A stretch of DNA of 64,000 nt from Amphiscolops sp. MND2022 (Eukaryota). Position numbers and translations under genes: made by a program. Below, one piece after another: positions 1 to 23,960 of this stretch (its first letter is position 1; every line of letters begins with the position of its first letter). Location: assembly GCA_964187785.1 (NCBI GenBank), contig OZ076409.1:71922001-71986000 (forward strand). Direction: 5' to 3'. The notes below the pieces were generated by a model. It had not been told where the DNA came from. It ran no database searches and saw only the letters and a list, made by a program, of their open reading frames with translations.

Positions 1-1496
1 GGTTGGGTCCTGCCGGACGTCAAATAGTGTGAAACATCCAGTAGGAAACGGCGACATAAATCAGCGATTTTAAAATTTAACCGTTAGAATTCGGACTTGG
101 AGTGCATGCGGCCCCAAAATGCCCATACGAATCGAAGTTCCTGCTGACGTTAAGCGATAAAAACATTTTATAAAAAGTTATGGCCCATTTTACGTTCAAC
201 TATAAGGGTAAAATGAGGAAAATTTTTACAAAGTCGCTGATAACTCAAAATACATTAACTTTTGGACTTTGACTGTGAAACAAGCTTAGAACCTTCATTT
301 CGTGGCTGTGGCATTGCACTGAACACAAAAGATGTAAAGTTTTTACATTTTTCGAAAATTCGACATTTTTGATTTTTTTTTCACTACTATCAGTACACTA
401 TATGTCAAAAACACCTCTGAAAAAAATTATTATTTGCTTAAAATTGGAAACCTTGGTATCCATGGTTTCTGTCGGAACCTACTCGCTGCCAAACACCCAA
501 CAGTTTGCATCCAATGTGAATTTAAAATTTTTTTCGAGGTCATAAGGGTTTCACAAGGTTTTCATAACTTAGTATTAAACTACAAACTGGTCATTTTCAA
601 CATAATATCTTTGTCGAGGCATGTCGGATATAGTCCTATTGCTCACGAACGGTCCTACTGGCAACGTAATAACCATTTATAGAAATGTAAAGTTATAAAA
701 AAATTTTTCACCCGGTCTTCAGTCATTTTTCAGTCATTCGGAACTTAACTTAGAAAAATTTCGACCAAAATATCCATTTTTTGTCAGGTCGAAAAATCAA
801 ATTCAGATTTTTAAGCAAAATTATTAACTCTGACGTAACCCATGGGGCCCATGATACTCAAAACAACGATTGACACTGGTATCAATGGCTCCAATAACAT
901 ATGAGTCGCGATAAGAGGTTATTTTGAGCATTACGTCTCAATTGAGGTAAAGATCTCGCAAGCCAGCGATCACTGTGAAATGTGATTTCATCAAAAATTT
1001 ACTCTTTTTTGTCAATCACTATGTGCACAGAATGCGTAGGGTGCGTTTCAGCACTATAATGAGGTTATTGAAGGCATCGAGTTGCTCAAGGGGTGGTATG
1101 AGACATTTTTGTCCCATATACTACTGTATTTTCCAAAATTTTTAGCCCAATATCTTCAAATACAAACTTGACAAAATACTTTCAACTACTTTATTCAAAG
1201 GTTACAATATAGATGAACACTGTGGTTGATCAGAAACTTTCATCTCTTTCGTTTTCCGAAATATTTCCCTTCGCATGTGTAATTCGTAGCAGAAAAAAAA
1301 ATCGAAACTGAAAAATACGCAATTTTGCTAATATAGAATCGCAATGATTGTGCCTAAAAACTCTTTAAACACTTCTAACGCAACCTTACGCACCCAAAAT
1401 GATCGAATATGCTATTCACAATGGTGACATGTGCTCTTTCTACGATCCTGGCTGGACAAGGTTTGCATATTTTTCAAGTACCTGTCAGCTAAATCT

Positions 1497-1546
1497 TGTG
1501 ATAGCCTTTTCAGTTGGCCTTGTGTCAACTTGGGAAGGCTATCACA
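1497..1546. repeat. Internal long palindrome P1 (all A units; family B at 4156-4198 and 7524-7567)
   Basis: TGTGATAGCCTT..AGTTG..CAACT..AAGGCTATCACA. Confidence 0.85.
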
Positions 1547-1836
1547 TCAAAAAACCATCAATAAAAATAATTTTTGTTTATTGGATCTTACAGTCGAAAC
1601 TTTTTTTCGTGATTCTATACTACCGTTAGTATATTTCATCAGGTCACCTTACGATTGCATTCAGTCTTTGATAAAAACCTATGAACTCAAAGTCACATTT
1701 ATATATTTTTTGCCCAACAAAATCATCAAAAATATCTAAAATACATAAAATAGAGTCTTTAACTTTTTTACGTTTCAAGTTTCTGCCGTTATTATGCCAA
1801 TCAACGTCCTAGAGCCACATCCTGCCACATACTGTA

Positions 1837-1946
1837 CAACGCCACATAGTGTTGCGACGTGCACAGTCTGTGGGCATGCCGAGGCATGCCCTTCGACGAC
1901 GTATGCCGAATACCGCGGGCCTACGCCCGCGCTCCCCGGCTAGGTG
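1837..1946 (+). other. Conserved right-end module (representative of 25 copies): direct repeats, palindrome, two hairpins, GCTAGGTG
   Basis: CAACGCCACAT..CRACGYSCAY..GTCYGT RGGCATGCCRAGGCATGCCY TTCGACGACG-like module present before every junction in all four families. Confidence 0.9.
1872..1891. promoter_or_regulatory. p53-family response-element match GGGCATGCCG AGGCATGCCC (representative; one per unit, e.g. 4658-4677, 5939-5958, 7912-7931, 16637-16656, 40572-40591, 56056-56075, 62101-62120)
   Basis: 19/20 match to RRRCWWGYYY x2 with zero spacer and CATG cores; binding is not demonstrated. Confidence 0.5.
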
Positions 1947-4734
1947 GCGGGGGGCTGTCCCCAATAGAATATAGTGAGGTAGGGTAGGGTTCCCTACCGA
2001 ACATTCAGTACTGAAAGACTCTTGTAGTATGAAAATTTTTCGATGTTTTGAGACCGATTTCGGATTCCACCCGTCAGAAGTTTATGATTTTTTGGCCCCC
2101 ACCCAGATTTTGGGCACTGATCGCCCCCCACCAGGTTCCATACCCGTGGTTTCGTTGTGACGGGTACACGAGCGACCGTTAGGGGTCAATCAGGGGGTAA
2201 AATTTATAAAAGTGTGAATAACTTTTCCCCCCGTCGTTTTAGCAGGTCCGGTCACTAGTAAAGGTTTGTTGGGCATCATGCAGTGGGTAAGGGGGGCCAA
2301 ACAAAAATTTTCTATCTTGCACCGTTACGGACTTGGCCCCCCGCCCAAACCGCTATTTTACCGGAAATTGCACTTTTTGACCGGGAAGGAGTCGTCTGAG
2401 CGCGGAGTCATTTGGTAATGTTTTGTAGAGCATCTGGAGACGTGGTGGGGGACATGTAGTTTGCCGACCCCAGTTTACCCCTCGGACGGGAAATGACCGT
2501 TATGTGAGTTTCAAAAATGCCCCCCTCCAATTTTCCCCGCAATTTCCGGTGTGAAGGAGTCGGAATAGCGTGTCGAGTGCTATATATCAAAAGTAGCTTT
2601 AAACAAGGACCTATCAGAAACATGTGGTTTGGGACCCTTTGAACGGACCCGTTAGCCGGAAATAGGGTGACCGCCTCCTCTTTTTGGTGGTAAAACCGTA
2701 AAACGGGCATTAAAGTGTAATTATCTCGTGAACGCGTGGAGCAATCGTGTCCATCACTCCTACAAGGTTTCATACCCATGACATGGTGCCTTCAGGGGGG
2801 CAAACAGATCAGCGCTATCTATCACCGTTACGGACTTTGCCCCCCAGCCTAACCGCTATATTACCGGAAATTGCCCTTTTTGACCGGGAAGGAGTCGTCT
2901 GAGAGTGGAGTCGTTAAGTAATGTTTTGTAGAGCATCTAGAGACGTGTTGGGGGACATGTAGTTTGCCGACCCCGGTTTACCCCTCGGACGGGAAATTAC
3001 CGTTATGTGAGTTTTAAAATTGACCCCCTTCAACTTTCCCCGTTATTTCCGATGTGAAGGAGTGAGGGTAGCGCGTCGGGTGTCATATATCAAAAGTAGG
3101 TTAAGACAAGGACCAACCGGGAACATGTTGTTTGGGACCCTCTGGCCCAACCCGTTAGCCGTTATAAGGGTGATCGCCTCCTTTTTTTACTGCTAAAACC
3201 GGAAAACGGGCATTGAGGGGTAAATATCTCGTGAACGCGTGGAGCAATCGTGTCCATCACTACTACAAGGTTTCATACCCATGATACGGTGCCTTCAGGG
3301 GGGAAAACAGATTACCGCTATATATCACCGTTACGGACTTGGCCCCCCAGCCTAACCGCTATGTGACCGGAAATGTCATTTTTTGAGCCAAAAGGGTTGG
3401 TCCCAGCGTGGGAACGTCAGGTAACTTTATGTAGAACTCAATGAGACGAGTTGGGGGATATAGTTTTAGTCACCCCCCGTTGACCCGTTGGACCGGAAAC
3501 GACCGTTATGTAGTGAAAAATGTTATTTTTATACTTTTTGAAGGCCATTTAGGGCAGGAAGTATCGGTAATATGTCTTTGGACAGTATACAATGAAAGTT
3601 TTGGTGTGAAACGAGCAATCTGAAATAACCGTTATTATGATTCGGAAGTCACACTAACAGCGAAAATGACCGTTATGTAGTGAAAATTTTTTTCACAATT
3701 TTTTTTATTTTCGATAGGTCCTTCAAGCCAGGAAGTAGCTGTATTAGGTCTTTGGTCACTTTATGATGATTGTGGTGTTGTGAGATGACCGTACGAACTT
3801 GACCGTTATAATGCCCCTGAAGTTGCGGCGGCACGAGAAATTTCAGAAAGTTTGTCTTTTCTGTGTTTTGTTGGAATAAACATGTAATTTCATCAAACCA
3901 AAGTGCATTCAGGGTGTCAGAAAGCTTCAAGAAAAGAATTTGACAGGAAACATGAGATGAGAAATAGGAAAATGCCACGGAAATCCAACCCGTTGGGAAG
4001 TAAAGATAATAAATTGGTTTGGAAGTGCCAATCGACGTGTAATTGCGGATCATAGCTACGATATTGTCTCTTTTGTTTCTTTTTGAAGACTTTGAACATT
4101 TTCACTTTATCAGCTTGAAGTTTCGACTCCATTAACTCAATAACCGTTACAATATGATAGCCCTCAAGTTGACCTTGTGTCAACTTGAAAGGGCTATCCT
4201 TTCACAACTGCGCAGCGACAGTGTGATTGAGTGTTTTTGTTATTATCCATAGCCAATTTGAACTTCAACAAAAGTTTAACCATAGTTAAAAAATTTCATA
4301 TGATTCTTTTAAAAGGATAAGTAAGAAACAAATGTTTGACAAAAAACTTTCAACCTTTAATTTGTGGACTGAATATCAGGAAAACCATGTCTCCTAACGT
4401 TGTTGGATGAAATTCAACATGATTCTTTTAATAGGATAACAAAGTTTGACAACATATTTTTTTATATTCTTTCGTTGGTGCTCTACATTTTAGGAAAACG
4501 AATTTTCCAACAAATATTGTTGGCTGATGCCTGTTCATAGTGGCTTGAAAATTTCACCAACTGTAATGCTTTTTATCAAAGGTGAAACCGCTCCTTACCG
4601 TCGCATAATGTAATTCAAGCCGACGCCCACATGCCAACATCAACGCCCACCGTCCGTAGGCATGCCGAGGCATGCCTTTCGACGACGTATGCCAAATCAC
4701 GCCCCTGCGAGGTCACTAAAGCGGTAGCGGCTAG
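1944..4734 (+). mobile_element. Unit 2, family B (2791 bp, GC-richer, internal 503-bp repeats)
   Basis: Bounded by two GCTAGGTG junctions; body unrelated to A but homologous to unit 4; conserved end modules present. Confidence 0.7.
2290..3520 (+). repeat. ~503-bp tandem repeat, ~2.4 copies (family B)
   Basis: ACCGTTACGGACTT anchor at 2321, 2824, 3327. Confidence 0.85.
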
Positions 4735-6012
4735 GTGGTCGTTAGCATGGGATTTTCTTTATGAGCGTAGTCCACTTTTTTTAGGCCGGGGTAGGGTCCC
4801 GGGCCGTTACCAATTTCTTACGGAGGAAAAATGTGAAAATCTGCGAGTTTAAAAAATTGGCCCGTACGATTTGGCTGAAAATTGGCATACAGCATCGTCT
4901 TGGTAAACAAATGACTTTGTCCTAGTGACATTTTGCCCAGAAAATTCAAAAAGTTGGTCAAATTGAAAATTTTTTGACCGTCTAAGGCTAAAATTTGACT
5001 TTTTCGCTTTTTTTGGTCAATTTCCTCAGAACTGGTTGATTTTGGTGAAGTAAGTCATAAGAAGTTATAAGGTCTGCAAATAGCATTCAATTGGCTTGCA
5101 TAATCAGATTTTGTCAAAAGTGTTTAGTTTTTTCAAAATTTCACACTTTTTTTTCATTTCAGTGTTTTTTGATACAATTTATTGAATTTTTACTAAGTTC
5201 CACTAAATATTTTTAAAATGTTTTTAAAAAACCTTTTTTTGCACGTTTTTGATGTTTTTTGCTCTCCCATATAGGTTTTCGCATACGGGGAACCTGAATC
5301 TGACAACGAAATAATTTTATTCCGCAGTTCAACTTACGCCATTTTTAATAGTGAAAAATCACTCATTTTCAATCTAACGAGTGAAAATATCAGAATTTAA
5401 AAACCTAAAGTTGAGTTTAAGGCGACTTACAGGTAGAAACAAATGCTCAGAAACAAACTGATTTCTTGTATTAGCTAAAGAAAGCCTTTAAAATTCTTTT
5501 TACTTTCTTTAAATCAAAATTCGACACTTTTCATGAAATTTGTCAGTGGAAAAAATTTATCATTTTTTAAATTAAAAACTTGCTTTGTTGGTCATTTCCG
5601 TTAGTCATTAGTAGCTGTGTAATGCTCCAAAGCCTTTCAAGTTCTTTTGACCCTATTTGAAAATTTTCGATACTGCATAATCAATCCGAGAGAACGAAAC
5701 AGTTGTGTACATTCCATCTCCCTCTTGGGGGAGATGAGAATGTACTTCCTAAAGTCCAGGTACTACAGATCATATTTGGTTTTATGCGACGCCCTTTAAG
5801 CTAGTGCATATAAATACAAGTTGTTTGGCTGGATTTTGCTTCTGACTTGACGTATACTGTACGTTTGGTACTGACAATACCCATCATTTACATAACAAAC
5901 GTCAACGCCACATACCCTTACCAACGCCCATAGTCCGTAGGCATGCCGAGGCATGCCTTTCGACGACGCGCGCCAAACACAAGCGCGCCCGCACTTTTGC
6001 GGTAGCGGCTAG
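4735..6012 (+). mobile_element. Unit 3, family C (1278 bp)
   Basis: Near-identical to unit 8 and homologous to unit 24; bounded by junction 8-mers. Confidence 0.75.
5707..5745. repeat. Internal long palindrome P2 (all C units and complete D units, e.g. 15742-15780, 39683-39721)
   Basis: GTACATTCCATCTCCC..GGGAGATGAGAATGTAC. Confidence 0.85.
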
Positions 6013-7985
6013 GTGCGGGGGGGAAACCCCAACAAAATTTTTGGAGGATTCGGGTAGGGTCCTGAATCCGAGTTCAGTGCTGCCAGCTTTCGTTAAGAAA
6101 ATTTGGATAGGATTCGGGATCTCGTGATCTAACCATAGGATTTTAAAGTTGGAGCGGCCCCCACCAGATTTTCCGAAAATTAGCGCCCCCCACCGGGTTC
6201 CAGCGTGATTGAAATATTTTGACGGGGTACACGGGCGACCGTTAGGGGTCATTTTGGGGGTAAAATTTATATCCGGTCGCATAACTTTTTTCCTGTTGGT
6301 TTAAAACTTTGGGACCCTGCTAAAAGTTTCTTGACCTTGTTGCAGTGGCTCCGGAGGTCCAAACCAAATTTTTCTATCTTGAAGCTATCTCCAAGTACCC
6401 CCCCGCCCAAAACGTTATTTTTCCGGAAACGCAGGTTTTTGACCCGGAAGGAGTCGTCGGAGCGCGGGGTCGTTAGGTGATGTATTGGAAACGGCCTTGA
6501 GACGAAGTGGGGGACATGCAGTTTGCCAACCCCAGTTTACCCCCCGGACGGGAAATGACCGTTATATGAGCGGGAAAAATGCCCCCCTCCACGTTTTACC
6601 GCTATTTCCGGTGTGAAGGAGTGGGAGTAGCGCGTCGGGTGCCATATATCAAAAGTAGGTTTAAACAAGGACCTATCGGAAACATGTGGTTTGGGACCCC
6701 CTGGACCAACCCGTTAGCGGGAAATGGGGCTTCCGCCTCCTTTTTTTACGGTTAAAAACGGAAAATGGGCATTGAGGGGTAAATATCTCGTGAACGCGTG
6801 GAGCTACGGTGTCCTTCACTACTACAAGGTTTCATACCCATGATATGGTGCCTTCAGGGGGGCAAACAGATTTCCGCTATCTATCACCGTTACGGACTTG
6901 GCCCCCCAGCCTAACCGTTAAGTGACCGGAAATGTCATATTTTGAGCCCAAAGGGTCGGTCTCAGCCAGGGAACGTTAGGTAACTTATTGTAGTACTCAT
7001 TGAGACGAGTTGGGGGACATAGTTTCAGTCACCCCCCGTTACCCCTTAGGACCGGAAATGACCGTTATGTGAGTAAAATTGCCATTTTTGTCCTATTTGA
7101 AGGGCATTTAGATGCGGAAGGAGTGGTAATAGGTGCTTGGACACTGTATGATGTAAGGGAGGACGTTAGGCGAGCATTCGGACATAACCGTTATGTTGAC
7201 CCTAAAGTCCCCCTGGTACCGTAAACGACCGGAAATGGTCAAATTTTGTGTCTATTGGGTACAAATGTTGGGTATTTTGTAGATAAAAGTATCTATTAGA
7301 TGTTTCGACGGTCTGCAGTAGTGAACATAGTCATGAAACCTTGTGGGGGGTAACGGTATATAGCACCGGAAGTCCAAACCGTTGGTGACAGGATAGGTTT
7401 TTTGGTTTTAAAATGTCTTTCGGCGTACCTTTGTCGACTATTAAGGACTATTTTTAAAAATTAAAGATTTTCCATATAGTTTCAGAGACTCCGAAACCTC
7501 AACCAACATAACCGTTACCTCATGATAGCCTTTCAAGTTGGCCTGGTGTCAACTTGGAAGGGCTATCCTTCAAAAATCGTCAATCGAGTGTGTTTTTGGG
7601 TATGTTTGTATCATTTTAGAATCAATTAGAGCTTCAAGAAAAGTTTCCCAACGACAAAAACTAATTCGTGAAGATTCCGTTACTAGAATTATAGTTAGCA
7701 AATTGTTGAGAAAAATGTTTTTTTTCCAAATTAAATGTGTCCTAAATGCCAGGAAACCTATTTAACTAACAAATGGTATTGATTGGAATGTATGTAACAG
7801 ATTTATAAAAGTTCAAATTGATTATTAAGTTTCATTATGGAAGCTGAAACGTAATATTTTAGTTTAATTAACGTCAACGCCACATACTTTTTATCAACGC
7901 CCACCGTCTGTGGGCATGCCGAGGCATGCCCTTCGACGACGTATACCAAATACATACCTAACGACGCCCGTACATTCCGGGCTAG
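6013..7985 (+). mobile_element. Unit 4, family B variant (1973 bp)
   Basis: Diverged homolog of unit 2 with one fewer 503-bp repeat and a different distal region. Confidence 0.7.
6360..7080 (+). repeat. ~503-bp tandem repeat, ~1.4 copies (family B variant)
   Basis: Homologous to the unit 2 repeat; boundaries approximate. Confidence 0.7.
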
Positions 7986-9969
7986 GTGGGCGGGGGTAAT
8001 TCCCCAACAAAAATTACGGCCGGCGGGTTGGGTCCTGCCGGACGTCAAATAGCAAAGAATATCTAGTAGGAAACGGCGACACAGAATCGCGATTTTTAAA
8101 TCTAACCACAATTTTTTGGACTTGGAGTGCATGCGGCCCTGAAATGCCCATACGAATCGAAGTTCCTGCTGACGTTAAGCGATTGAAATAATATATAAAA
8201 AGTTATGGCCCATTTTTCACTCACAAAGAAGGGTAAAATGAGGAAATTTTCAACAAAGTCGCTGATAACTCAAAATGTGTTAATTTTTGGACATTGACTG
8301 TGAAACAAGCTTGGAACCTTCATTTCGTGGCTGTGGCATTGCACTGAACACAAAAGATGTAAAGTTTTTACATTTTTTGAAAATTTGACATTTTTGAAAT
8401 TTTTTTCACTACTATCAGTACCCCATATGTCAAAAACGCCTCAGAAAAAAATTTTTATTTGCTTTAAATTGGAAACCTTGGTTTCCATGGTTTCTGTCGG
8501 AACCTACTCGCAGCCAAACACTCAACAGTTTGCATCCAATGTGAAAATAAAATTTTTTTCGGGGTCATAAGCGTTTCACAAGGATTTCTCAACTTAGTAT
8601 TAATTTACAAAATGGTCATTTTGAACACAATATTTTCATCGAGGCTTGTCGGCTATAGTCTTAATGTTATAGAACGGTCCCACTGGCAACGTAGGAACCA
8701 TTTATAGTAATAGAAAGTATTTAAAAAATATTTTCACCCGGTCTTCAGTCATTTTTCAGTCATTCGGAACTTAACTTAGAAAAATTTCGACCAAAATACC
8801 CATTTTTTGTCAGGTCGAAAATTCAAAATCAGATTTTTAAGCAAAATTATTAACTCTGACGTAACCCATGGGGCCCATGATACTCAAAACAACGATTGAC
8901 ACTGGTATCAATGGCTCCAATAACATATGAGTCGCGATAAGACGTTATTTTGAGCAATACGTCTCAATTGAGGTAAAGATCTCGCAAGCCAGCGATCACT
9001 GTGAAATGTGATTTCATAAAAAATTTACTCATTTTTGTCAATCACTATGTGCACAGAATGCGTAGGGTGCGTTTTAGCACTATAATGAGGTTTTTGAAGG
9101 CATCGAGTTGCTCAAAGGATGGTATGAGACATTTTTGTCCCATATACTACTGTATTTTCCAAAATTTTTAGCCCAATATCTGGAAATACAAACTTGACAA
9201 AATACTTTCAACTACTTTATTCAAAGGTTACAATATAGATGAACACTGTGGTTGATCAGAAACTTTCATCTCTTTCGTTTTCCGAAATATTTCCCTTCGC
9301 ATGTGTTACATTTGTAGCAGAAAAAAAATCGAAACTGAAAAATACGCTATTTTGCTAATATGGAATCGCAATGATTGTGCCTAAAAACTTTTTAAATACT
9401 TCTAACGCAACTGTACAGACCCAAAATGATTGAAAATGCCATTCACAATGCTGACATGTGCTCTTTCTACGATCCTAACTGGACAAGTTTTGCATATTTT
9501 TCAAGTACCTGTTAACTGAATCTCGTGATAGCCTTTTAAGTTGGCCTTGTGTCAACTTGGGAAGGCTATCACATCAAAAAATTTTCAACAAAAATACCTT
9601 TTGTTTATTGGAAATGACAGTCGATATATAATTTCGTGATTCTATACTACCGTTAGTACCTTCCATTAAGTCACCTGACGATTGCATTCAGTCTTTGATA
9701 AATACCTATGAACTCGAAGTCATATTTATAATTTTTGTGCTAAAAATAAACATCAAAATTATCCAATTTATTTAAAATTGAGTCTTTACCGTTTTTGTTT
9801 TACTTTTTCTACTGTTATTTAGGCCCATCAACTTCCTACAGCCACGCTCTCTGTCATTAGTACAACGCCACATAGTGTTGCGACGTGCACAGTCTGTGGG
9901 CATGCCGAGGCATGCCCTTCGACGACGTATGCCGAATACCGCGGGCCTACGCCCGCGCTCCCCGGCTAG
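7986..9969 (+). mobile_element. Unit 5, family A (1984 bp), head h2, tail t1
   Basis: Colinear with other A units; bounded by junctions. Confidence 0.75.
8020..8041 (+). other. Conserved left-end hairpin with T(A/T/C)GGGT loop (representative; also 1978-1998, 4784-4805, 6046-6069)
   Basis: Stem sequence differs by family but stays paired; loop conserved. Confidence 0.75.
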
Positions 9970-11954
9970 GTGGGCGGGGGTAATTCCCCAACAAAAATTA
10001 CGGCCGGCGGGTTGGGTCCTGCCGGACGTCAAATAGCAAAGAATATCTAGTAGGAAACGGCGACACAGAATCGCGATTTTTAAATCTAACCACAATTTTT
10101 TGGACTTGGAGTGCATGCGGCCCTAAAATGCCCATACGAATCGAAGTTCCTGCTGACGTTAAGCGATTGAAATAATATATAAAAAGTTATGGCCCATTTT
10201 TCACTCACAAAGAAGTGTAAAATGAGGAAATTTTTAACAAAGTCGCTGATAACTCAAAATGTGTTAATTTTTGGACATTGACTGTGAAACAAGCTTGGAA
10301 CCTTCATTTCGTGGCTGTGGCATTGCACTGAACACAAAAGATGTAAAGTTTTTACATTTTTTGAAAATTCGAAATTTTTGAAATTTTTTTCACTACTATC
10401 AGTACCCCATATGTCAAAAACGCCTCAGAAAAAATTTTTTATTTGCTTTAAATTGGAAACCTTGGTATCCATGGTTTCTGTCGGATCCTACTCACAGTCA
10501 AACACCCAACAGTTTGCATCCAATGTGGAATTAAAAATTTTTTCGGGGTCATAAGCGTTTCACAAGGATTTCTCAACTTAGTTTCAATTTACAAATTGGT
10601 CACATTGAACACATTATTTTCATCGAAGCGCGTCAGATACCGCCCTAAAGCTCACGAATGGTCCTACTGGCAACGTAGCAACCATTTATAGTAATATAAA
10701 AGATTAAAAAAATTTTTTCACCCGGTCTTCAGTCATTTTTCAGTCATTCGGAGCTTAACTTAGAAAAATTTCGACCAAAATACCCATTTTTTGTCAGGTC
10801 GAAAAATCAAATTCAGATTTTTAAGCAAAATTATTAACTCTGACGTAACTCATGGGGCCCATGATACTCAAAACAACGATTGACACTGGTATCAATGGCT
10901 CCAATAACATATGAGTCGCGATCGGACGTTATTTTGAGCAATACGTCTCAATTGAGGTAAAGATCTCGCAAGCCAGCGATCACTGTCAAATGTGATTTCA
11001 TCAAAAATTTACTCATTTTTGTAAATCATTATGTGCACAGAATGCGTAGGGTGCTTTTCAGCACTATAATGAGGTTTTTGAATGCATCGAGTTGCTCAAG
11101 GGGTGGTACGAGACATTTTTGTCCCATATACTACTGTATTTTCCAAAATTTTTAGCCCAATATCTGGAAATACAAACTTGACAAAAAACTTTCAACTACT
11201 TTATTCAAAGGTTACAATATAGATGAACACTGTGGTTGATCAGAAACTTTCATCTCTTTCGTTTTCCGAAATATTTTCCTTAGCATGTGTTATATATGTA
11301 TCAGAAAAAAAATCGAAACTGAAAAATACGCTATTTTGGTAATATAGAATCGCAATGATTGTGCCTAAAAACTCTTTAAACACTTCTAACGCGACCTTAC
11401 GCACCCAAAATGATCGAAAATGCTATTCACAATGGTGACATGTGCTCTTTCAACGATCCTGGCTGGACAAGGTTTGCATATTTTTCAAGTACCTGTCAGC
11501 TGAATCTTGTGATAGCCTTTTAAGTTGGCCTTGTGTCAACTTGGGAAGGCTATCACATCAAACAACCATCAACAAAAATAATTTTTGTTTATTGGATATT
11601 ACAGTTGATACCTTATTTCGTGATTCTATACTACCGTTAGTATATTCCATGAGGTCACCTTACGATTGCATTCAGACTTTGATGAAAACCTATGAACTCA
11701 AAGTCACATTTATATATTTTTTGCCCAAAAAAATCATCAAAAACATCTATTATATATAAAATTGAGTCTTTAACTTTTTTACGTTGCAAGTTTCTGCCGT
11801 TATTAGGCCAATCAACGTCCTAGAGCCACATCCTGCCACATACTGTACAACGCCACATAGTGTTGCGACGTGCACAGTCTGTGGGCATGCCGAGGCATGC
11901 CCTTCGACGACGTATGCCGAATACCGCGGGCCTATGCCCGCGCTCCCCGGCTAG
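9970..11954 (+). mobile_element. Unit 6, family A (1985 bp), head h2, tail t1
   Basis: Very similar to unit 12. Confidence 0.75.
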
Positions 11955-12769
11955 GTGGGCGGGGGTAATTCCCCAACTAAAAAATCGGCCGGCGGGTAGG
12001 GTCCTGCCGGCCGTCCAAAATCAAAATTATACTAGTAGAAAACGGCCGGTCAAACGAGCTATTTTTTTATTTAACCGTTAGAATTTGGGTTTAGATTGCA
12101 TGCGGCCATGAAATGGCCATACGAATCGAAGTTCCTGCTGACGATTTGCGATTGAAACACTTTATAAAAAGTTATGGCCAATTTGTCATTCACCTAGAAG
12201 GGCAAAATGAGGAAAATTTTAACAAAGTCGCTGATAACTCAAAATGTAATAATTTTTGGACTTTGACAGTGAAACAAGCTTGGAACTGTCATTTCGTGGC
12301 TGTGGCATTGCACTGAACACAAAAGATGTAAAGTTTTCACATTTTTTGAAAATTCGACATTTTTGAATTTTTTTCACTACTATCAGTACACTATATGTCA
12401 AAAACGCCTCTGAAAAAAATTTTTATTTGCTTAAAATTAGAAACCTTGGTATCCATGGTTTCCGTCAGTACCTAATCGCTGCCAAACGCTCAACAGTTTG
12501 CATCCAATGTGAAAATATAATTTTTTTCGAGGTCATAGGTGTTTCACAAGGATTTCTCAACTTAGTATCTATTTACAAATTGGTCATTTTGAACACATTA
12601 TTTTCATCGAAGCGTGTCAGATACCACCCTAATGCTCACAAATGGGCCTACTGGCAACGTTGGAACCATTTTTAGTAATAGAAAGTATTAAAAAAATATT
12701 TTCACCCGGTCTTCAGTCATTTTTCAGACATTCGGTACTTAACTTAGAAAAATTTCGCATCAAAAACCC

Positions 12770-13950
12770 ATATTTGGTAGGGTCGAAAATTGAAATTCAG
12801 TTTTTTATGCAAAATGATTAACTCTGACGTAACCAGTGGAGCCCATGATACTCAAAAACACGATTGGGACTGGTATCAGTGGCTCCAATAACATATGAGC
12901 CGCGATAAGACGTTATTCAGAGCAAACGCTCTAAATCGAAGTAAACATCTCTGAAGCCTGGGATCACAGTGAAATGTGATATCACCAAAAGTTTACTCTT
13001 TTTTGTCAATCACTATGTACACAGAGTGCGTAGGGTGAGTTTCAGGACTATAATGAGGTTTTTGAAGTAATCGCGCTGCTCAAGGGGTGGTATGAGACTA
13101 TTCTTTCCCATATACTACTACATTTCCATAAATTTGCAGTCCATTGTCTTGGAAAGATAACTTCACAAAAACAATTTTTCTACTCTATTCAGTTATTAGA
13201 ATAAAGTTGAACACTGTGGTTGATCAGAAATGCTCAATTCTTTTGGTTTTTAAAAAAATTCCTTCGCATTCGTTACATTTGTGGAAGGAAGGTTATCAGT
13301 AGCTCCAAAAAAAACGAAATTTAGCACGAACAGACATGCAACGATGCAAAGCAAAAACGTTTTTACAACTTCCGACGTCATTATTTTACCCAAGAAGTTC
13401 GAAAATATCATTCGCAATGCTGTCATTCGCTATATATACGATCGCGGTCAATTTACAAACATTTAGATTTCATTGTTCTGCTTGAAAACCAATTTTTGTC
13501 AGGTCGAAATTTTAAATTTTGCCTGGGTAGCAATACCCTTCACGCTGAAGTAAACAGTGGGGCCCAAGTTACTCAAAAACAAGAAAGAGACTGCTACAAT
13601 ATGTCCTAATAACATATGGACCACGATAGTACGTTTTTCACACAAAAAACTCTCATCCGAAGTAAATATGTTGAAAGCTTTTAATCACCGTGAGAAGTGA
13701 TTTCATCAAAAAATAACTCTTTTTTGTCAATCACTGTTTACACAGAATTTGTAAAGTTAGTTTGAGTCATGAAATGAGGCTTTACCGTAATATGGGTTGC
13801 TCAAGGTGTTATATAAGACAAAAACTTCCTCTTTACTACTAGCTTCTTCAAATATTTCAACCCTTTGTCACAATAAGTTAATATTCAAAATCTCTTTGAA
13901 ATGTATCTTTATGTTGGGGTGAAGTCTAAGAACAATAACTATGATCGAAG
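12770..13950 (+). repeat. Old ~720-bp-period internal duplication in family D
   Basis: Block TTT(G/T)GT..GGTCGAAA .. GCCCA..TACTCAAAAAC .. ATCAC.GTGA.A.GTGAT .. GCTCAAGG.GT occurs from ~12773 and again from ~13493. Confidence 0.75.
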
Positions 13951-14159
13951 AATGATAGTACTGGTGTTTGAACCATGTCCGGATGAACAAATCACAAAAT
14001 CATCAAAAAATTGTTCCCTTTTTTGGTTATTTTGGCAGTACTAAAAATGTTAGCTGATAAATAATTTTTTCGATGGCACCATTGGATTCCTCTCAAAAAG
14101 TTGGTTATATGACCTGTGTAATAACCCCGTATCTTTTCAATTTAAATATATTTAAAAAG

Positions 14160-15530
14160 CCAACTATTTTGACCAAAATCCTAAAAATCATACCATTTCC
14201 TAAAAATTTTCAAATGCACCCCATTTGACGTATAAGATAAGCACAGAAAACTATCATATACCGATCAACTCTACTCCCATTGTAGATTATTATAATTTTG
14301 TTTAGAATGAATTTTGATGGATATTAAAAAAATTTTGAACCCTCCAAAAATGGGCCAAAATTACACGAAAAAATTGACCTTAAAATACCAAAATGTCAAA
14401 AAATCATCAAAACCACGGCTTCTTGGGGTTCTATTAACTCCGCGTGGTCCACAGAGTATGCTAAAACAGGATTTACCCGTTTTTGAGCAATATGTGAAAA
14501 AGCCGACATTTTTGGGAAAGAAAAACATACCATTTCCTAAAAAAATTCAAATGCACGTCATTTGCCGTATTAGAATAGCACAGAAAACTATCACATACCA
14601 ATCAACTCTACTTTCATTGCAGATGAACAGAATTTTGTTTAGAATAAATTTTACCGGATAATAAAAAAAGTTGAATCCTTCAAAAATGGGCCAAAATTAC
14701 ACGAAAAAATGGACATTAAAAATTTAAAATGTCAAAAAATCATCAAAACAACAGCTTCTTGGGCTTCTATCAACTCCACGAGGTCCACAGAGTATGCTAA
14801 AACAGGTTTTACCCGTTTTTGAGCAATATGTGAAAAAGCCGACATTTTTGGGAAAGAAAAACATACCATTTCCTAAAAAAATTCAAATGCACGCCATTTG
14901 CCGTATGAAAATAGCACAGAAAACTATCACATACCAATCAACTCTACTTTCATTGCAGATGAACAGAATTTTGTTTAGAATAAATTTTACCGGATAATAA
15001 AAAAATTTGATTCCTTCTAAAATGGGCCAAAATTACACGAAAAAATGGACCTTAAAATTTTAAAATGTCAAAAAATCATCAAAACCACGGCTTCTTGTGG
15101 TTCTATCAACTCCACGTGGTCCACAGAGTATGCTTAACCCGGTTTTACCCATCTTTGAGCAAAATGTGAAAATACCGACATTTTTGGAAAAGAAAAACAT
15201 GCCATTTTCTAATAAATTTCAAATGCACGCCATTTGCTGTATGAGAATAACACAGAAAGCTGTCACATACCGATCAACTCTACTTCCATTGTAGATTATC
15301 AGAAGTTTGTTTAGAATAAATTTTGATGGATAATAAAAAAAATTGAATCCATCAAAAATGGGCCAAAATTACACGAAAAAATTGACCTTAAAATATCAAA
15401 ATGTCAAAAAATCATCAAAACCACAGTTTCTTGGCGTTCTATCAACTCCATATGATACCAAACCAGGTACTGCCAATCGTTTGAGTTATAATAAAAAAAC
15501 GTCTTTTTTGGCAAGAATTCCATACCATAA
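14160..15530 (+). repeat. 336-bp tandem repeat, ~4 copies (D1)
   Basis: CATRCCATTT anchor at 14189, 14526, 14862, 15198. Confidence 0.9.
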
Positions 15531-16714
15531 ATAATAATCATGTTCCATATAAGAAGCGAATCATTTCAGATATATACCCTGTTCATTTTTTTAATATTAC
15601 CGATTATTAATTTAATAGATGTTTTGAATGTGAGCTTCCTAAAAGGTTCAGGTGTGATGATACGTAAATAGAACCTTAGTTTCATCGAAATCTCAATTGA
15701 ATATGTCCAATCTTAACCATCAGATAACAAGAAACACTTAAGTACATTCCATCTCCCCATCGGGGGAGATGAGAATGTACTTTCGAGAAGCCAAATACGT
15801 CCAACATTCAAACTTTTGTAACTTTGTATGTAACTCCTGAAACGAAGAAGGAATAAAATTGTTTCTGGTACATACATGAGTCTTTACTTCAGCTTCTATT
15901 TCTGCTGAACAAAACCATTCGACTCTTTTGCCGGAGTTAAGATCGATTGTATTACCCAGTGAACAAAGGCATGACTGAAAACGTTTACTAATTTGTTCAT
16001 AATTTTCCGGCCTTCCGAAATGATGAAACGTCCACATAACTAAGATAGCAAGTGAATGACTGCGAAATGCACCTTATTAGATGAGGTAAATAACGTGTAA
16101 AACTCTCCTTTATCCTAACATGAGGTTGAGTAATGATCATTTGAGAATAGTTTGATATGTGAATACAATAGTATAAAACCAGTACATTTTATATGAATAA
16201 CGCCGTGGAAAGCGTTCAGAAAGGACAGTAGGCTTGTTTGGAACATGTATGTGTGGTGTCCCTTGGTGGCGTTCGCTTAGTGTATATGTCGAGGGGTATT
16301 CGAGTTGTTATGATAGAATTTACACACAAGTGTTTTGCTTTTTGGTTTTTTTAAAATGTCGTTAAGTACCTGCATTCTATCCCCTTCTCAGAGATGACGT
16401 GAAGTTACGTTTGCTAAATAAATGTCATCGAAAGATCACACTCCCGACGAAATTAACTATCTTAACACGTGTTTAGAATTTTGAATAAACAACCGTATAA
16501 GATTTTTATATTTCATTGAGTTTGATGGAGTCTTTTGTTCTTCTCACTACTATTTCAACCAATACACATATCCGTTACCATATCACATGTCTTCATTAGT
16601 ACAACGCCACATAGCGTTCCGACGCCCACAGTCTGTGGGCATGCCGAGGCATGCCCTTCGACGACGTATGGCAAATGGAGCCATGCCCGCCGTCTTTACG
16701 GCGGTAGCGGCTAG

Positions 16715-17992
16715 GTGGTCGTTAGCATGGGATTTTCTTTATGAGCGTAGTCCACTTTTTTTAGGCCGGGGTAGGGTCCCGGGCCGTTACCAATTTCTTA
16801 CGGAGGAAAAATGTGAAAATCTGCGAGTTTAAAAAATTGGCCCGTACGATTTGGCTGAAAATTGGCATACAGCATCGTCTTGGTAAACAAATGACTTTGT
16901 CCTAGTGACATTTTGCCCAGAAAATTCAAAAAGTTGGTCAAATTGAAAATTTTTTGACCGTCTAAGGCTAAAATTTGACTTTTTCGCTTTTTTTGGTCAA
17001 TTTCCTCAGAACTGGTTGATTTTGGTGAAGTAAGTCATAAGAGGTTATAAGGTCTGCAAATAGCCATCAATTGGCTTGCATAATCAGATTTTGTCAAAAG
17101 TGTTTAGTTTTTTCAAAATTTCACACTTTTTTTTCATTTCAGTGTTTTTTGATACAATTTATTGAATTTTTACTAAGTTCCACTAAATATTTTTAAAATG
17201 TTTTTAAAAAACCTTTTTTTGCACGTTTTTGATGTTTTTTGCTCTCCCATATAGGTTTTCGCATACGGGGAACCTGAATCTGACAACGAAATAATTTTAT
17301 TCCGCAGTTCAACTTACGCCATTTTTAATAGTGAAAAATCACTCATTTTCAATCTAACGAGTGAAAATATCAGAATTTAAAAACCTAAAGTTGAGTTTAA
17401 GGCGACTTACAGGTAGAAACAAATGCTCAGAAACAAACTGATTTCTTGTATTAGCTAAAGAAAGCCTTTAAAATTCTTTTTACTTTCTTTAAATCAAAAT
17501 TCGACACTTTTCATGAAAGTTGTCAGTGGAAAAAATTTATCATTTTTTAAATTAAAAACTTGCTTTGTTGGTCATTTCCGTTAGTCATTAGTAGCTGTGT
17601 AATGCTCCAAAGCCTTTCAAGTTCTTTTGACCCTATTTGAAAATTTTTGATACTGCATAATCAATCCGAGAGAACGAAACAGTTGTGTACATTCCATCTC
17701 CCTCTTGGGGGAGATGAGAATGTACTTCCTAAAGTCTAGGTACTACAGATCATATTTGGTTTTATGCGACGCCCTCTATGCTAGTGCATATAAATACAAG
17801 TTGTTTGGCTGGATTTTGCTTCTGACTTGACGTATACTGTACGTTTGGTACTGACAATACCCATCATTTACATAACAAACGTCAACGCCACATACCCTTA
17901 CCAACGCCCATAGTCCGTAGGCATGCCGAGGCATGCCTTTCGACGACGCGCGCCAAACACAAGCGCGCCCGCACTTTTGCGGTAGCGGCTAG
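16715..17992 (+). mobile_element. Unit 8, family C (1278 bp)
   Basis: Near-identical to unit 3. Confidence 0.75.
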
Positions 17993-19984
17993 GTGGGCGG
18001 GGGTAATTCCCCAACAAAAAAATCGGCCGGCGGGTCGGGTCCTGCCGGCCGTCCAAAATCAAAATCCTCCTAGTAGAAAACGGCATGTCAAACGAGCTAT
18101 TTTTTTATTTAACCATACGAATTTCACCATTTTTTGCATGCGGCCCTGAAATGGCCATACGAGACGAAGTTCCTGCTGACGTTTTGCGATGTAAATGTTT
18201 TATATAAAGTTATGGCCGATTTGTCATTCACCTAGAAGGGTAAAATGAGGAAAATTTTAACAAAGTCGCTGATAACTCAAAATGTGTTAATTTTTGGACT
18301 TTGACTGTGAAACAAGCTTGGAACCTTCATTTCGTGGCTGTGGCATTGCATTGAACACAAAAGATGTAAGGTTTTTACATTTTTTGAAAATTCGACATTT
18401 TTGAAAATTTTTTCACTACTATCAGTACCCCATATGTCAAAAACACCTCAGAAGAAAAGTTTTATTTGCTTTAAATTGAAAACCTTGGTAGCCATGGTTT
18501 CTGTCGGAACATACTCGCTGCCAAACACCCAACAGTTTGCATCCAGTGTGAATTTAAAAATTTTTTCGAGGTCTTAGGTGTTTCACAAGGATTTCTCAAC
18601 TTAGTATCAAATTACAAATTGGTCATTTTAAACACATTATTTTCATCGAAGCGTGTCAGATACCGCCCTAATGCTCACGAACGGGCCTACTGGCAACGTT
18701 GGAACAATTTATCGTAATAGAAAGTTTTAAAAAAAATTTTTCGCCCGGTCTTCAGTCATTTTTCACACATTCGGAACTTAACTTAGAAAAATTTCAACCG
18801 AAAAACCCATTTTTTGTCAGGTCGAAAATTCAAAGTCAGCTTTTTAAGCAAAATTATCAACTCTGACGTAACCAGTGGGGCCCATGATACTCAAAACAAC
18901 GATTGGGGTTGGTACCAATGGCTCCAATAACATATGAGTCGCGATAAGACGTTATTTTGAGCAATATGTCTCAATTGAGTTAAAGATCTCGCCAACCAGT
19001 GATCACTGTGAAATGTAAATTCAATAAAAATTTACTCATTTTCGTCAATCACCATGTGCACAGAGTGCGTAGGGTGAGTTCCAGCACTATAATGAGGTTT
19101 TTGAAGGCATCGGGTTGCTCAAGGGGTGGTATGAGACATTTTTTTCCTATATACTACTGTATTTTCCAAAAGTTTTAGCCCATTATCTGGAAAAACTAAC
19201 TTGACAAAATACTTTCAACAACTTTTTTCAAAGGTTACAATGTAGATGAACCCAGTGGTTGATCAAAAATTTTCATCTCTTTCGGTTTCCGAAATAATTC
19301 CCTTCGAATGTGTTACATTTGTAGCAGGAAAAAAACCGAAACTAAAAAATACGCGATTTTGCTGAGATAGAATCGCAATGGTTGCCCCTAAAATCTCTTT
19401 AAATACTTCTAACGCGACCTTATGGACCCAAAAAGATTGAAAATGCCATTCACAATGCTGACATGTGCTCTTTCGACGATCCTGGCTAGACAAGTTTTGC
19501 ATATTTTTCAAGTACCTGTTAACTGAATTTTGTGATAGCCTTTTAAGTTGGCCTTGTGTCAACTTGGGAAGGCTATCACATCAAAAAACTTTCATCAAAA
19601 ATACTTTTTGTTTATACAATAATGTAGTCGATAGTTATTTTCGTGATTTTACACTACCGTTAGTACCTTCCGCCAGGTCAGCTGACGATTGCATGCTGTC
19701 TTTGATAAAAACGTATGAACACCAAGAAAATTTTGTTGTATTTTTGTTGAAGAAAAGTATTAATAAATAATAAAAATATAATTCTAACCTTAAACAACTA
19801 TAAATTTGCTTAACCGTTATTAGTCCTACCACCTATCATCAGCCTATGCCATGGCCCGGTGATTAGTAGTACAACGCCACATAAAGTAGCGACGCCCACA
19901 GTCTGTGGGCATGCCGAGGCATGCCCTTCGACGACGTATGGCAATTTTAGCGTAGCCCGCGGTCACTACCGCGGTAGCAGCTAG
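17993..19984 (+). mobile_element. Unit 9, family A (1992 bp), head h4, tail t6
   Basis: Near-identical to unit 14. Confidence 0.75.
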
Positions 19985-21971
19985 GTGGGCGGGGTAATTC
20001 CCCAACAAAAATTACGGCCGGCGGGTTGGGTCCTGCCGGACGTTCAAATAGCGCGAAGCATCTAGTAGAAAACAAGGAGTCCTGAAACAGCGATTTTAAA
20101 ATTGAACCGTTAGAATTTGGTTTTAGATTGCATGCGGCCCTAAAATCCCCATACGAATGGAAGTTCCTGCTGGCGTTAAGCGATTGAAATAATATATAAA
20201 AAGTTATGGCCCATTTTTGGGTCACCGAGAAGGTCAAAATGAAGAAAATTTTAACTAAGTTGCTGATAACTCAAAATGTGTTAATTTTTGGACTTTGACT
20301 GTGAAACAAGCTTGGAACCTTCATTTCGTGGCTGTGGCATTGCACTGAACACAAAACATGTAAAGTTTTCACATTTTTTGAAAATTCGACATTTTTGAAT
20401 TTTTTTTCACTACTATCAGTACACTATATGTCAAAAACACCTGTGAAAAATTTTTTCATTTGCTTAAATTTAGAAACCTCGGTATCCATGGTTTCCGTCA
20501 GTACCTACTCGCTGCCAAACACTCAACAGTTTGCATCCAATGTGAAAATAAATTTTTTTTCGAGGTCTTAGGTGTTTCACAAGGATTTCTCAACTTAGTA
20601 TCAATTTACAAATTGGTCATTTTGAACACATTATTTTCATCGAAGCGTGTCATATACCGCCCTAATGCTCACGAACGGGCCTACTGGCAACGATGGAACC
20701 ATTTATAGTAATAAAAAGTTTTAAAAAAATTTTTTCACTCCGTCTTCAGTCATTTTACACACTTTCGGAACTTAACTTAGAAAAATTTCAACCAAAAACC
20801 CATTTTTTGTCAAGTCGAAAATTCAAATTCAGCTTTTTAAGCAAAATAAATAAATCTGACATAACCAGTGGGGCCCATGAAACTCAAAACCACGATTGAG
20901 ACTGGTATCAATGGCTCCAATAACATATGAGTCGCGATAAGACGCTATTTTGAGCAAAACATCTCAATTGATGTAAAGATCTCGCAAGCCAGCGATCACT
21001 GTGAAATGTGATTTCATCAAAAATTTACTCTTTTTTGTCAATCACTATGTGCACAGAATGCGTAGGGTGCGTTTCAGCACTATAATGAGGTTTTTGAAGG
21101 CATCGAGTTGCTCAAGGGGTGGTATGAGACATTTTTGTCCCATATACTACTGTAGTTTCCAAAATTTTTACCCCAATATCTGAAAATACAAACTTGACAA
21201 AATACTTTCAACTACTTTATTCAAAGGTTACAATATAGATGAACACTGTGGTTGATAAGAAACTTTCATCTCTTTCGTTTTCGGAAATATTTCCGTTCGC
21301 ATGTGTTACATTCATAGCAGAAAAAAAATCGAAACTGAAAATACGCTATTTTGCTGATATAGAATCGCAATGATTGTGCCTAAAAACTCTTTGAACACTT
21401 CTAACGCAACCTTACGCACCCAAAATGATCGAAAATGCTATTCACAATGGTGACATGTGCTCTTTCTACGATCCTGGCTGGACAAGGTTTGCATATTTTT
21501 CAAGTACCTGTCAGCTAAATCTTGTGATAGCCTTTTCAGTTGGCCTTGTGTCAACTTGGGAAGGCTATCACATCAAAAAACCATCAACAAAAATAATTTT
21601 TAAATATTGGATCTTACATTCGATACTTTTTTTCGTGATTCTATACTACCGTTAGTATATTTCATCAGGTCACCTTACGATTGCATTCAGTCTTTGATAA
21701 AAACCTATGAACTCAAAGTCACATTTATATATTTTTTTTGCCAGAAAATAACATCAAAAATATCTAAAATATATAAAATAGAGTCTTTAACATTTTTACG
21801 TTTCAAGTTTTTGCCGTTATTAGGCCAATCAACGTCCTAGAGCCACATCCTGCCACATACTGTACAACGCCACATAGTGTTGCGACGTGCACAGTCTGTG
21901 GGCATGCCGAGGCATGCCCTTCGACGACGTATGCCGAATACCGCGGGCCTACGCCCGCGCTCCCCGGCTAG
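19985..21971 (+). mobile_element. Unit 10, family A (1987 bp), head h5, tail t1
   Basis: Near-identical to unit 21. Confidence 0.75.
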
Positions 21972-23960
21972 GTGGGCGGGGGTAATTCCCCAACAAAAAT
22001 TACGGCCGGCGGGTTGGGTCCTGCCGGACGTTCAAATAGCGCGAAGCATCTAGTAGAAAACAAGGAGTCCTGAAACAGCGATTTTAAAATTGAACCGTTA
22101 GAATTTGGTTTTAGATTGCATGCGGCCCTAAAATCCCCATACGAATGGAAGTTCCTGCTGGCGTTAAGCGATTGAAATAATATATAAAAAGTTATGGCCC
22201 ATTTTTGGGTCACCGAGAAGGTCATAATGAAGAAAATTTTAACTAAGTTGCTGATAACTCAAAATGTGTTAATTTTTGGACTTTGACTGTGAAACAAGCT
22301 TGGAACCTTCATTTCGTGGCTGTGGCATTGCACTGAACACAAAAGATGTAAAGTTTTCACATTTTTTGAAAATTCGACATTTTTGAATTTTTTTCACTAC
22401 TATCAGTACACTATATGTCAAAAACACCTCTGAAAAAATTTTTTAATTGCTTAAATTTAGAAACCTCGGTATCCATGGTTTCCGTCAGTACCTACTCGCT
22501 GCCAAACACTCAACAGTTTGCATCTAATATGAAAATAAAATTTTTTTCGAGGTCTTAGGTGTTTCACAAGGATTTCTCAACTTAGTATCAATTTACAAAT
22601 TGGTCATTTTGAACACATTATTTTCATCGAAGCGTGTCATATACCGCCCTAATGCTCACGAACGGGCCTACTGGCAACGTTGGAACCATTTATAGTAATA
22701 AAAAGTTTTAAAAAAATTTTTTCACCCCGTCTTCAGTCATTTTACACACTTTCGGAACTTAACTTAGAAAAATTTCGACCAAAATATCCATTTTTTGTCA
22801 GGTCGAAAAATAAAATTCAGATTTTTAAGCAAAATTAATAACTCTGACGTAACCCATGGGGCCCATGATACTCAAAACAACGATTGACACTGGTATCAAT
22901 GGCTCCAATAACATATGAGTCGCGATAAGACGTTATTTTGAGCATTACGTCTCAATTGAGGTAAAGATTTCGCAAGCCAGTGATCACTGTGAAATGTGAT
23001 TTCATCAAAAATTTACTCTTTTTTGTCAATCACTATGTGCACAGAATGCGTAGGGTGCGTTTCAGCACTATAATGAGGTTTTTGAAGGCATCGAGTTGCT
23101 CAAGGGGTGGTATGAGACATTTTTTTCCTATATACTACTGTAATTTCCAAAACTTTTAGCCCATTATCTGGAAATACAAACTTGACAAAAAACTTTCAAC
23201 TACTTTATTCAAAGGTTACAATATAGATGAAATCTGTGGTTGATCAGAAACTTTCATCTCTTTCGTTTTCCGAAATATTTCCCTTCGCATGTGTTACATT
23301 CGTTGCAGAAAAAAAAATCGAAACTGAAAAATACGCTATTTTGCTAATATAGAATCGCAATGATTGTGCCTAAAAACTCTTTAAACACTTCTAACGCAAC
23401 CTTACGCACCCAAAATGATCGAAAATGCTATTCACAATGGTGACATGTGCTCTTTCTACGATCCTGGCTGGACAAGGTTTGCATATTTTTCAAGTACCTG
23501 TCAGCTAAATCTTGTGATAGCCTTTTCAGTTGGCCTTGTGTCAACTTGGGAAGGCTATCACATCAAAAAACCATCAACAAAAATAATTTTTGTTTATTGG
23601 ATCTTACAGTCGATACTTTTTTTCGTGATTCTATACTACCGTTAGTAAATTTCATCAGGTCACCTTACGATTGCATTCAGTCTTTGATAAAAACCTATGA
23701 ACTCAAAGTCACATTTATATATTTTTTTGCCAAAAAATAACATCAAAAATATCTAAAATATATAAAATAGAGTCTTTAACATTTTTACGTTTCAAGTTTT
23801 TGCCGTTATTAGGCCCATCAACGTCCTAGAGCCACATCCTGCCACATACTGTACAACGCCACATAGTGTTGCGACGTGCACAGTCTGTGGGCATGCCGAG
23901 GCATGCCCTTCGACGACGTATGCCGAATACCGCGGGCCTACGCCCGCGCTCCCCGGCTAG
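21972..23960 (+). mobile_element. Unit 11, family A (1989 bp), head h5, tail t1
   Basis: Colinear A unit bounded by junctions. Confidence 0.75.

Follow-up and report, generated by a model that had tools for sequence, protein, structure and literature searches.

What kind of element ends, as Helitrons do, in a hairpin, a few nucleotides and CTAG, and is joined directly to a sequence that starts with GTG rather than TC? The question was raised by an initial annotation of one such end in the window, by which we mean the whole 64-kb stretch analysed (1..64000, plus strand). The window is a mosaic array of 26 units, 24 of them complete, arranged head to tail in one orientation. The units belong to five gene-less families of 1.3–4.8 kb which abut in mixed order (Table 1). 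The Helitron-like tail is a real, non-random feature; it is a variable component of a signal which is conserved, involves both ends and gives rise to mixed arrays. The elements occur almost only joined to each other, which goes beyond the interpretation given in that annotation.

Table 1. Families, units, joints and end features of the array (window numbering).
Feature	Position	Strand	Remarks
Family A			15 units, ~2.0 kb
Family D			6 units, ~4.76 kb, one cut off; first 1.3–1.5 kb common with A
Family C			3 units, 1.28 kb
Family B1			1 unit, 2.79 kb
Family B2			1 unit, 1.97 kb
Unit B1	1944..4734	+	degenerate internal repeats of ~503 bp and ~167 bp
Unit C	4735..6012	+	
Unit B2	6013..7985	+	
Representative unit A	7986..9969	+	
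Representative unit D	11955..16714	+	336-bp internal satellite at 14184-15450
336-bp satellite of D units	14184-15450, 38115-39451, 44864-46198, 53603-54869, 59645-60995		
First joint core	1939..1946	+	GCTAGGTG
Other joints, end of CTAG	4734, 6012, 7985, 9969, 11954, 16714, 17992, 19984, 21971, 23960, 25945, 27936, 29929, 31918, 33900, 35884, 40648, 42634, 47395, 49383, 51372, 56133, 57412, 62177	+	
Two copies of CAACGCCAC/GACGCCCAC-like motif	1837..1864	+	tail
Double palindrome RGGCATGCC-GA-GGCATGCCY	1872..1891	+	folds as hairpin, outer pair G-C/A-T
Invariant motif TTCGACGAC	1892..1900	+	all 25 tails and L001
Short variable stem	1901..1913	+	GTAT/ATAC in t1; same start position in all tails
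Terminal stem, tail type t1	1914..1931	+	7 bp
In-register terminal stem class, other tails	5989-6002, 16687-16704, 19957-19974, 27909-27926, 40621-40638		
Small G4/C4 hairpin	1951..1962	+	A, D, B1, B2, L001; absent in C
Left-end hairpin	1978..1998	+	conserved core GGGTNGGGTYC at 1982-1992; family-specific covarying stems
Internal bulged hairpin, type X	1500..1543	+	A, B1, B2; 17 copies; 397-536 nt before unit end
Internal bulged hairpin, type Y	5707..5745	+	C, D, L001; 8 copies in window; 266-934 nt before end

The bodies of A/D, B and C cannot be aligned apart from short islands; the end motifs are conserved across the families. Every complete D unit contains about four copies of the 336-bp satellite, and the D unit additionally holds a 70% copy of part of the body shared by A and D. 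Adjacent A units are no more alike (89.6% identity, n = 10 pairs) than non-adjacent ones (89.5%, n = 95 pairs), so that a rolling-circle concatemer built from a single unit does not account for their order. Distant A units can be 99% identical, and blocks are duplicated (u8/u13 and u9/u20, both 99%). A units such as 17993-19984 and 27937-29929 are patchworks of one another in 200-base blocks. Gene conversion and block duplication have acted on the A units on top of the process that joined them.

The joint core GCTAGGTG (GCTAG|GTG) is invariant at all 25 joints in the window. Each joint is exact, with no extra bases, all lie on one strand and every end adjoins another end. When the core was combined with the downstream left-end loop motif, 25 matches were obtained in the window and none in 100 shuffles. 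The joints had been described beforehand as CTAG|GTG without the TC of canonical Helitrons, and this description holds at every one of them. Most CTAG sites in the window (57 of 82) and five of the 30 plus-strand GCTAG sites are not joints; the target therefore exceeds the tetranucleotide. Six cross-family joint types were found (A to B1, B1 to C, C to B2, B2 to A, D to C, and C to A/D). All six switches map within the eight-base core and none maps in the longer conserved block upstream, and at every family switch the variable last 45 nt of each tail stay with their own body. The window confines the cut to the eight bases common to all joints, five on the left and three on the right. As it has no host flank, the absence of an A/T target given in the initial annotation does not follow from it; Helitron1 elements insert between A and T. 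In L001, a relative from outside the window, the joint reads GGCGAG|GTG, i.e. the end is CGAG and not CTRR.

The right end combines several motifs. The very start of each unit is an inverted copy of the CAACGCCAC/GACGCCCAC-like tail motif; the match comprises only 3–7 exact bases and lies 84–124 nt from the end in the eight units tested. The outer pair of the double palindrome is G–C or A–T, never mixed, in 88 of 88 reads. With one mismatch, the palindrome agrees with the p53 site consensus in all 25 tails and in L001 (812-831), where 0.015 matches at one mismatch would be expected per shuffled 8 kb. Among the papers listed by a literature search on the p53 consensus and transposons, none contained that consensus. 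As a coding sequence the tail was rejected, as its changes are non-synonymous and the frames differ.

The terminal hairpin is the weakest signal of the end system. Stems of 7 bp are formed in tail types t1, D1, D2, t2, t3 and t4 (p = 0.008–0.045 against shuffles); the stem has 5 bp in C (p = 0.31) and in B2 (p = 0.09), where it stands directly against TAG, and only 3 bp in B1 (p = 0.94) and L001 (p = 0.90), in which the hairpin is absent. The apparent 8-bp stem of D2 would have a 2-nt loop and so folds as 7 bp. The initial annotation listed five terminal stems, each followed by 6–8 nt and CTAG, and all five were found at the positions it gave. Its further claim that the stem changes in sequence while remaining paired stands in part. 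The 3' arm of t1 corresponds to the CCCGC that forms the 5' arm in C, D1, D2 and t2–t4, which places t1 out of register rather than making it a case of covariation, and B1 lacks the stem. The in-register 18-nt stems show changes on both sides at two of their seven pairs, a value reached in 22 of 500 shuffles (four rows aligned, three of them distinct, with the shorter stem of C left out). The second stem proposed just upstream can be seen by eye in t1, C, B2, D1, D2 and L001 and is weak in B1 and t2–t4.

All heads in the window start with GTG. In five of the six head types the core of the left-end hairpin begins at +39 or +40; in C it begins at +55. Its loop, GGGTNGGGTYC, is carried by five different stems in the window and L001 taken together, and an A variant also occurs. 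Across eight aligned rows 89% of the stem cells are paired, with a covariation score of 0.577 as against 0.185 in shuffled alignments (reached in 0 of 500) and at most 0.306 in slid controls. The number of pairs changed on both sides (four) is not above shuffles (233 of 500), and the rows are related. Each of the 25 units ending in the window also has exactly one long bulged internal hairpin, X or Y. The two types are unrelated in sequence, are conserved where their flanks vary and have z scores of −6 to −9. The X/Y hairpin and the p53-like double palindrome are conserved candidate cis elements.

The units have no coding capacity. A Pfam scan of 73 frames (all those of at least 55 amino acids in one copy per family, except part of one duplicate A, plus six longer ones) revealed no RepHel protein, other transposase, recombinase or reverse transcriptase. 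An Rfam scan of positions 1-20000 gave no hits at the gathering threshold, and over 1700-8200 two chance hits at an E value of 2; no ribozyme of the self-cleaving kind carried by retrozymes and Penelope-like elements was detected. A stop-to-stop frame on the minus strand (3676-4101), which partly overlaps a degenerate internal repeat, matched the Pfam family Flu_PB2_6th with an E value of 8e-6 and solved structures with an E value of 0.4. This match is probably due to chance, the alternative being a tiny endogenous viral fragment.

Records from outside the window allowed further joints to be read. Spurious gene calls translate these repeats and the resulting protein reads cross joints, so that combinations of tail and head become readable at the protein level, with a loop pattern that was written after the reads had been seen. 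A tail-frame profile gave 90 matches. The core is crossed by 59 of them, while 27 end within the tail, two continue without the core and two are in another frame. A tail-only profile in the second frame gave 83 matches, 75 of which cross the core (66 with the loop translation, six without it and three too short). The other eight comprise two that stop, five that continue without the core, two of which resemble heads with an altered joint, and one that diverges early. By this profile, a left end follows 75–77 of the 81 right ends that could be read. The reciprocal result came from a search in which only the A head was scored: all 19 matches are preceded by a tail, with 14 distinct tail strings. 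One head type (five matches) shows no recognizable loop translation. In the combined set the core is crossed by 134 of 171 distinct protein reads. Heads fall into 44 strings and tails into 56, numbers that overcount the families because frames and alleles differ. The ends mix freely: 25 tail strings occur with two or more different heads, and 22 head strings with two or more different tails. The matches lie on contigs of 75 distinct lengths, 56 of which exceed 100 kb; most of them probably come from the same assembly as the window, and gene calling may favour GC-rich continuations. Dozens of such repeat families are likely to exist genome-wide. Two reads were dropped: P0153 (476 amino acids), at first grouped with a tail read, lacks any tail motif, is an unrelated protein resembling acyltransferases and was removed from the counts together with its contig, and P0191 is an unrelated repeat protein.

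Records separate from the window were found at the nucleotide level. A pattern scan of metagenomes returned one match, L001, which is a tail|head joint. In sequencing-run searches one run matched, with no RNA run among the matches listed, and two contigs of sequencing run X1 begin 14 and five bases to the left of a joint. The pattern had no matches in viral contigs (five of five scans) or in prokaryote genomes (two of two scans). Together with the megabase contigs filled with satellites, this suggests that the host is a eukaryote.

Within the eight common bases the cut most likely lies between CTAG and GTG, as judged from four odd protein reads. In two of these, P0183 and P0195, foreign sequence follows directly on GCT-AG, and both are possible solo right ends, in which CTAG is followed by G/A in P0183 and by T/C, or a truncation, in P0195. 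P0081 has three extra bases at the joint, and in P0089 a head is joined to non-tail DNA without AG. All four fit this position and none of them proves it.

The exact joints, the shared end anatomy and the free mixing of ends call for an enzyme acting on both ends. In the leading explanation, which we hold to be about as probable as all others together, the gene-less units are mobilized in trans by an HUH (rolling-circle, Helitron-like) nuclease which targets the resident right-end|left-end joint. Such a nuclease fits best because a hairpin precedes CTAG, the joints lack duplications and a conserved loop is carried on a free stem at a fixed distance from the cut. We infer the enzymatic steps as follows. 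The enzyme would bind the left-end hairpin, nick the top strand some 40 nt upstream, between CTAG and GTG, and become linked to the 5' G. The strand would then be displaced as far as the first GCTAG beyond the right-end hairpins and closed into a circle, with a joint identical in sequence to the chromosomal one. As HUH enzymes cleave such joints reversibly, both the joint of the circle and a resident one could be nicked and their strands swapped, which would insert the circle between two resident units and leave two new joints; arrays would grow and be shuffled unit by unit in one orientation. Ordinary unequal exchange and gene conversion would subsequently duplicate blocks and make the A units mosaic.

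Precedents exist for the individual steps. In the experiments described in PMC5876387, Helraiser cleaves its own RTS–LTS junction on the top strand, precisely and reversibly. In its hairpin, Helraiser tolerates a swap of the stem and not a change in the loop, i.e. the loop outweighs the stem sequence (PMC4778049). The relaxase TrwC is described in PMC3264647 as integrating DNA into a resident copy of its own nick site. The initial annotation had likewise proposed a non-canonical rolling-circle element with a multi-hairpin end. This remains the leading reading, supported now mainly by the exact joints, the left-end hairpin (its loop, covarying stem and fixed distance) and the free mixing of ends. 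The 3' hairpin carries less of the weight, being patchy, weakly covarying and accompanied by a CGAG variant. Against an HUH nuclease stand the lack of any RepHel or other transposase trace in the 73 frames, the missing terminal hairpin in B1 and L001, the CGAG end of L001, and the invariant core spanning both sides of the joint, which a recombinase would also require. The same holds for the left-end stem's number of two-sided changes, which is at the level of shuffles, for the head type that has no recognizable loop translation, and for the indirect nature of the protein reads. In addition, the units start with G if the cut follows CTAG, whereas T is the first base of every Helitron-like element described (PMC3627910).

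Compared with known Helitron groups, the units agree with each in part. With HLE1 elements, including Helraiser and head-to-tail Helitron arrays, most tail types share an 18-nt hairpin followed by 6–8 nt and CTAG. A hairpin of the HLE1 kind, of 16–20 nt and 10–15 nt before the 3' end, is present in t1, D1, D2, t2, t3, t4 and C, abuts the end in B2 and is absent in B1 and L001. Exact end-to-end joints without duplication, internal satellites and gene-less derivatives are further points in common. If the cut follows CTAG, all 25 window joints show a CTRR end, with CGAG in L001. Unlike HLE1 elements, the units start with GTG (TC at 0 of 25 joints), have a structured left end, three further conserved right-end motifs, an internal hairpin and the CGAG variant, and are almost without solo copies; their arrays mix many families instead of repeating one. 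As in HLE2 elements (Helitron2/Helentron/DINE-1/FoHeli), hairpins lie at both ends, and the bases that open the unit recur in inverted form in the subterminal part of its right end. The HLE2 match, in contrast, has 8–15 bp and lies 20–60 nt from the end. HLE2 elements start with T and target T|T or TTTT|Y; the units have no T start and no TT at any joint, and they end in CTAG; a T start would need the cut CTAGG|TG, against which P0195 and P0081 weakly speak. Although the units behave like a rolling-circle element whose target regenerates itself, they belong neither to Helitron1 (no TC) nor to Helitron2 (inverted match, T start and TT).

A third clade, the telomeric Helitrons of Paramecium, is described in PMC13085455 as target-specific and oriented, ending in CCAA, with satellites and alternative RTSs. 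Like the units, they have a single orientation, a specific target, many RTSs with compensatory stems, satellite-filled gene-less copies and a tolerated non-CTRR end. Unlike the units, which abut directly, they retain telomeric repeats between their copies. Of the known systems they are nearest in behaviour. The window contains no tandem TTAGGG or TTAGG and no complements of these motifs.

Other systems share less. Replitron-1 inserts after RG and has direct repeats (PMC10288648). Replitrons resemble the units in being HUH elements with an end hairpin and oriented insertion right after RG (AG here); their definition, however, requires a Y1 Rep and short direct repeats at either end, and they are not described as mixed arrays. 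The core here occurs once per joint, and in P0089 the head adjoins non-tail DNA that lacks AG. IS91, IS200-IS605 and relaxase integration share single-strand cutting at a fixed distance from a hairpin and a target that is the element's own end or nick site; they are prokaryotic, and the units had no match in the prokaryote or viral collections. The comparison also drew on PMC11417382, PMC4067079, PMC5148889 and PMC13286980. Among the papers listed in a search of the open-access literature, none was found to describe elements starting with GTG or arrays in which many families mix freely, though a family catalogued in Repbase or Dfam may exist.

The invariant eight bases and the shuffling are explained equally well by a tyrosine recombinase, either of the Crypton type or one that, as in integrons or CTX, acts on single strands when folded. 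It would excise units as circles between two joints and integrate them into others by conservative exchange over the core. The logic would be that of a cassette array without genes which grows and is reshuffled at a single joint, and exact joints, one orientation, near-obligate arrays and free shuffling would all follow. The asymmetric core also fits the 6–8 bp spacer of Cryptons as given in PMC3212892. The inverted arms of 11–13 bp that should flank such a spacer are missing, the flanks differing by family and not being complementary, and animal Cryptons are reported without terminal repeats or such structures (PMC3212892). The succession of hairpin and CTAG would be left unexplained, no recombinase was found in the 73 frames scanned, and there is no conserved attC-like stem across the crossover. 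In attC sites the core pairs with an inverse core, and in several folds the GTG of the core can pair with CAC 85–105 nt upstream. This pairing does not covary, and five of 12 reads with the same tail end, as well as unit 23, carry a mismatching upstream variant. For want of covariation it was rejected as a long-range splint or attC pairing. Only 3–4 pairs are constant, and the inner pair is broken in unit 23 and in those five of 12 reads. On this evidence a tyrosine recombinase is an unlikely agent, though the main rival to an HUH nuclease.

Decayed non-autonomous Helitrons that turned into a complex satellite are a poorer fit, and we regard this origin as improbable. The early joints would have arisen by rolling-circle concatemers or chance double insertion and the later mixing by host recombination. 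Helitron-derived tandem arrays are known; in cnidarians and frogs they are presented as the product of a single family amplified locally (PMC11934779, PMC12001565). Dimers also arise through site preference (PMC5932611). The mosaic A units, with their duplicated blocks (u8/u13 and u9/u20), are what such a process would leave, and they point to later conversion. Homologous exchange would, however, be expected in the conserved block of 45–60 nt and would have swapped the variable last 45 nt with the downstream unit, whereas the tails keep their own bodies and the six cross-family joint types all fall in eight bases. Dozens of tail–head pairs exist, neighbours are not more alike, and the end motifs are conserved while the bodies are unalignable; the satellite origin is already strained.

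Concatenation through RNA, in which a template-jumping reverse transcriptase (Penelope-, retroplasmid- or telomeric-retroelement-like) adds structured transcripts end to end, seems very improbable. It also fits worse than either enzyme, as does pure satellite evolution. One orientation, mixed order and structured ends do resemble telomeric retroelement arrays, and some stems contain G–T pairs. Yet 5' truncations, poly(A) and untemplated bases are absent at 25 of 25 joints and in 75 of 83 reads, and no Rfam ribozyme or other RNA family was matched. Among the remaining candidates, a GT...AG intron or introner (no pyrimidine tract, a weak donor and a GAG end in L001), a group II intron, which starts with GUGYG (no Rfam domain V), and Transib/Chapaev-type CAC...GTG ends (no terminal inverted repeats) were dismissed.

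In most Helitron arrays known, a single element is repeated or the copies are inserted in host sequence. In the present arrays, many bodies that look unrelated combine freely at one joint, and this points to an enzyme whose target is strict and regenerates itself. Such an enzyme would be a naturally occurring landing-pad integrase, working in a eukaryote on cargo of kilobase size. It would also provide a direct route from transposon to complex satellite. Tentatively, and rather against our own expectation, the units might represent a distinct eukaryotic cassette-array system, with dozens of families without genes that regularly target nothing but the resident joint, an undescribed site-specific single-strand nuclease or recombinase, megabase mosaic arrays and a conserved p53-type site at every joint. 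Such arrays could possibly form a chromosome-end or centromere compartment. The structural rules (a GTG start, a loop at +40 and a CTAG or CGAG end) would be missed by current TC/CTRR and inverted-repeat detectors.

A few protein reads depart from the common pattern. In P0089 a B2-type left end is doubled (27 codons), with the second copy joined to the non-tail DNA, and this doubling resembles the multiple 5' termini of FoHeli. In P0183, P0195, P0207, P0259 and P0028 right ends run into foreign or internal sequence; two of the five have complete or nearly complete tails and are possible array ends, and three are cut short. An altered joint followed by a recognizable head is seen in P0262, P0081 and P0243, and P0262, from an 818-base contig, may be a more distant relative.
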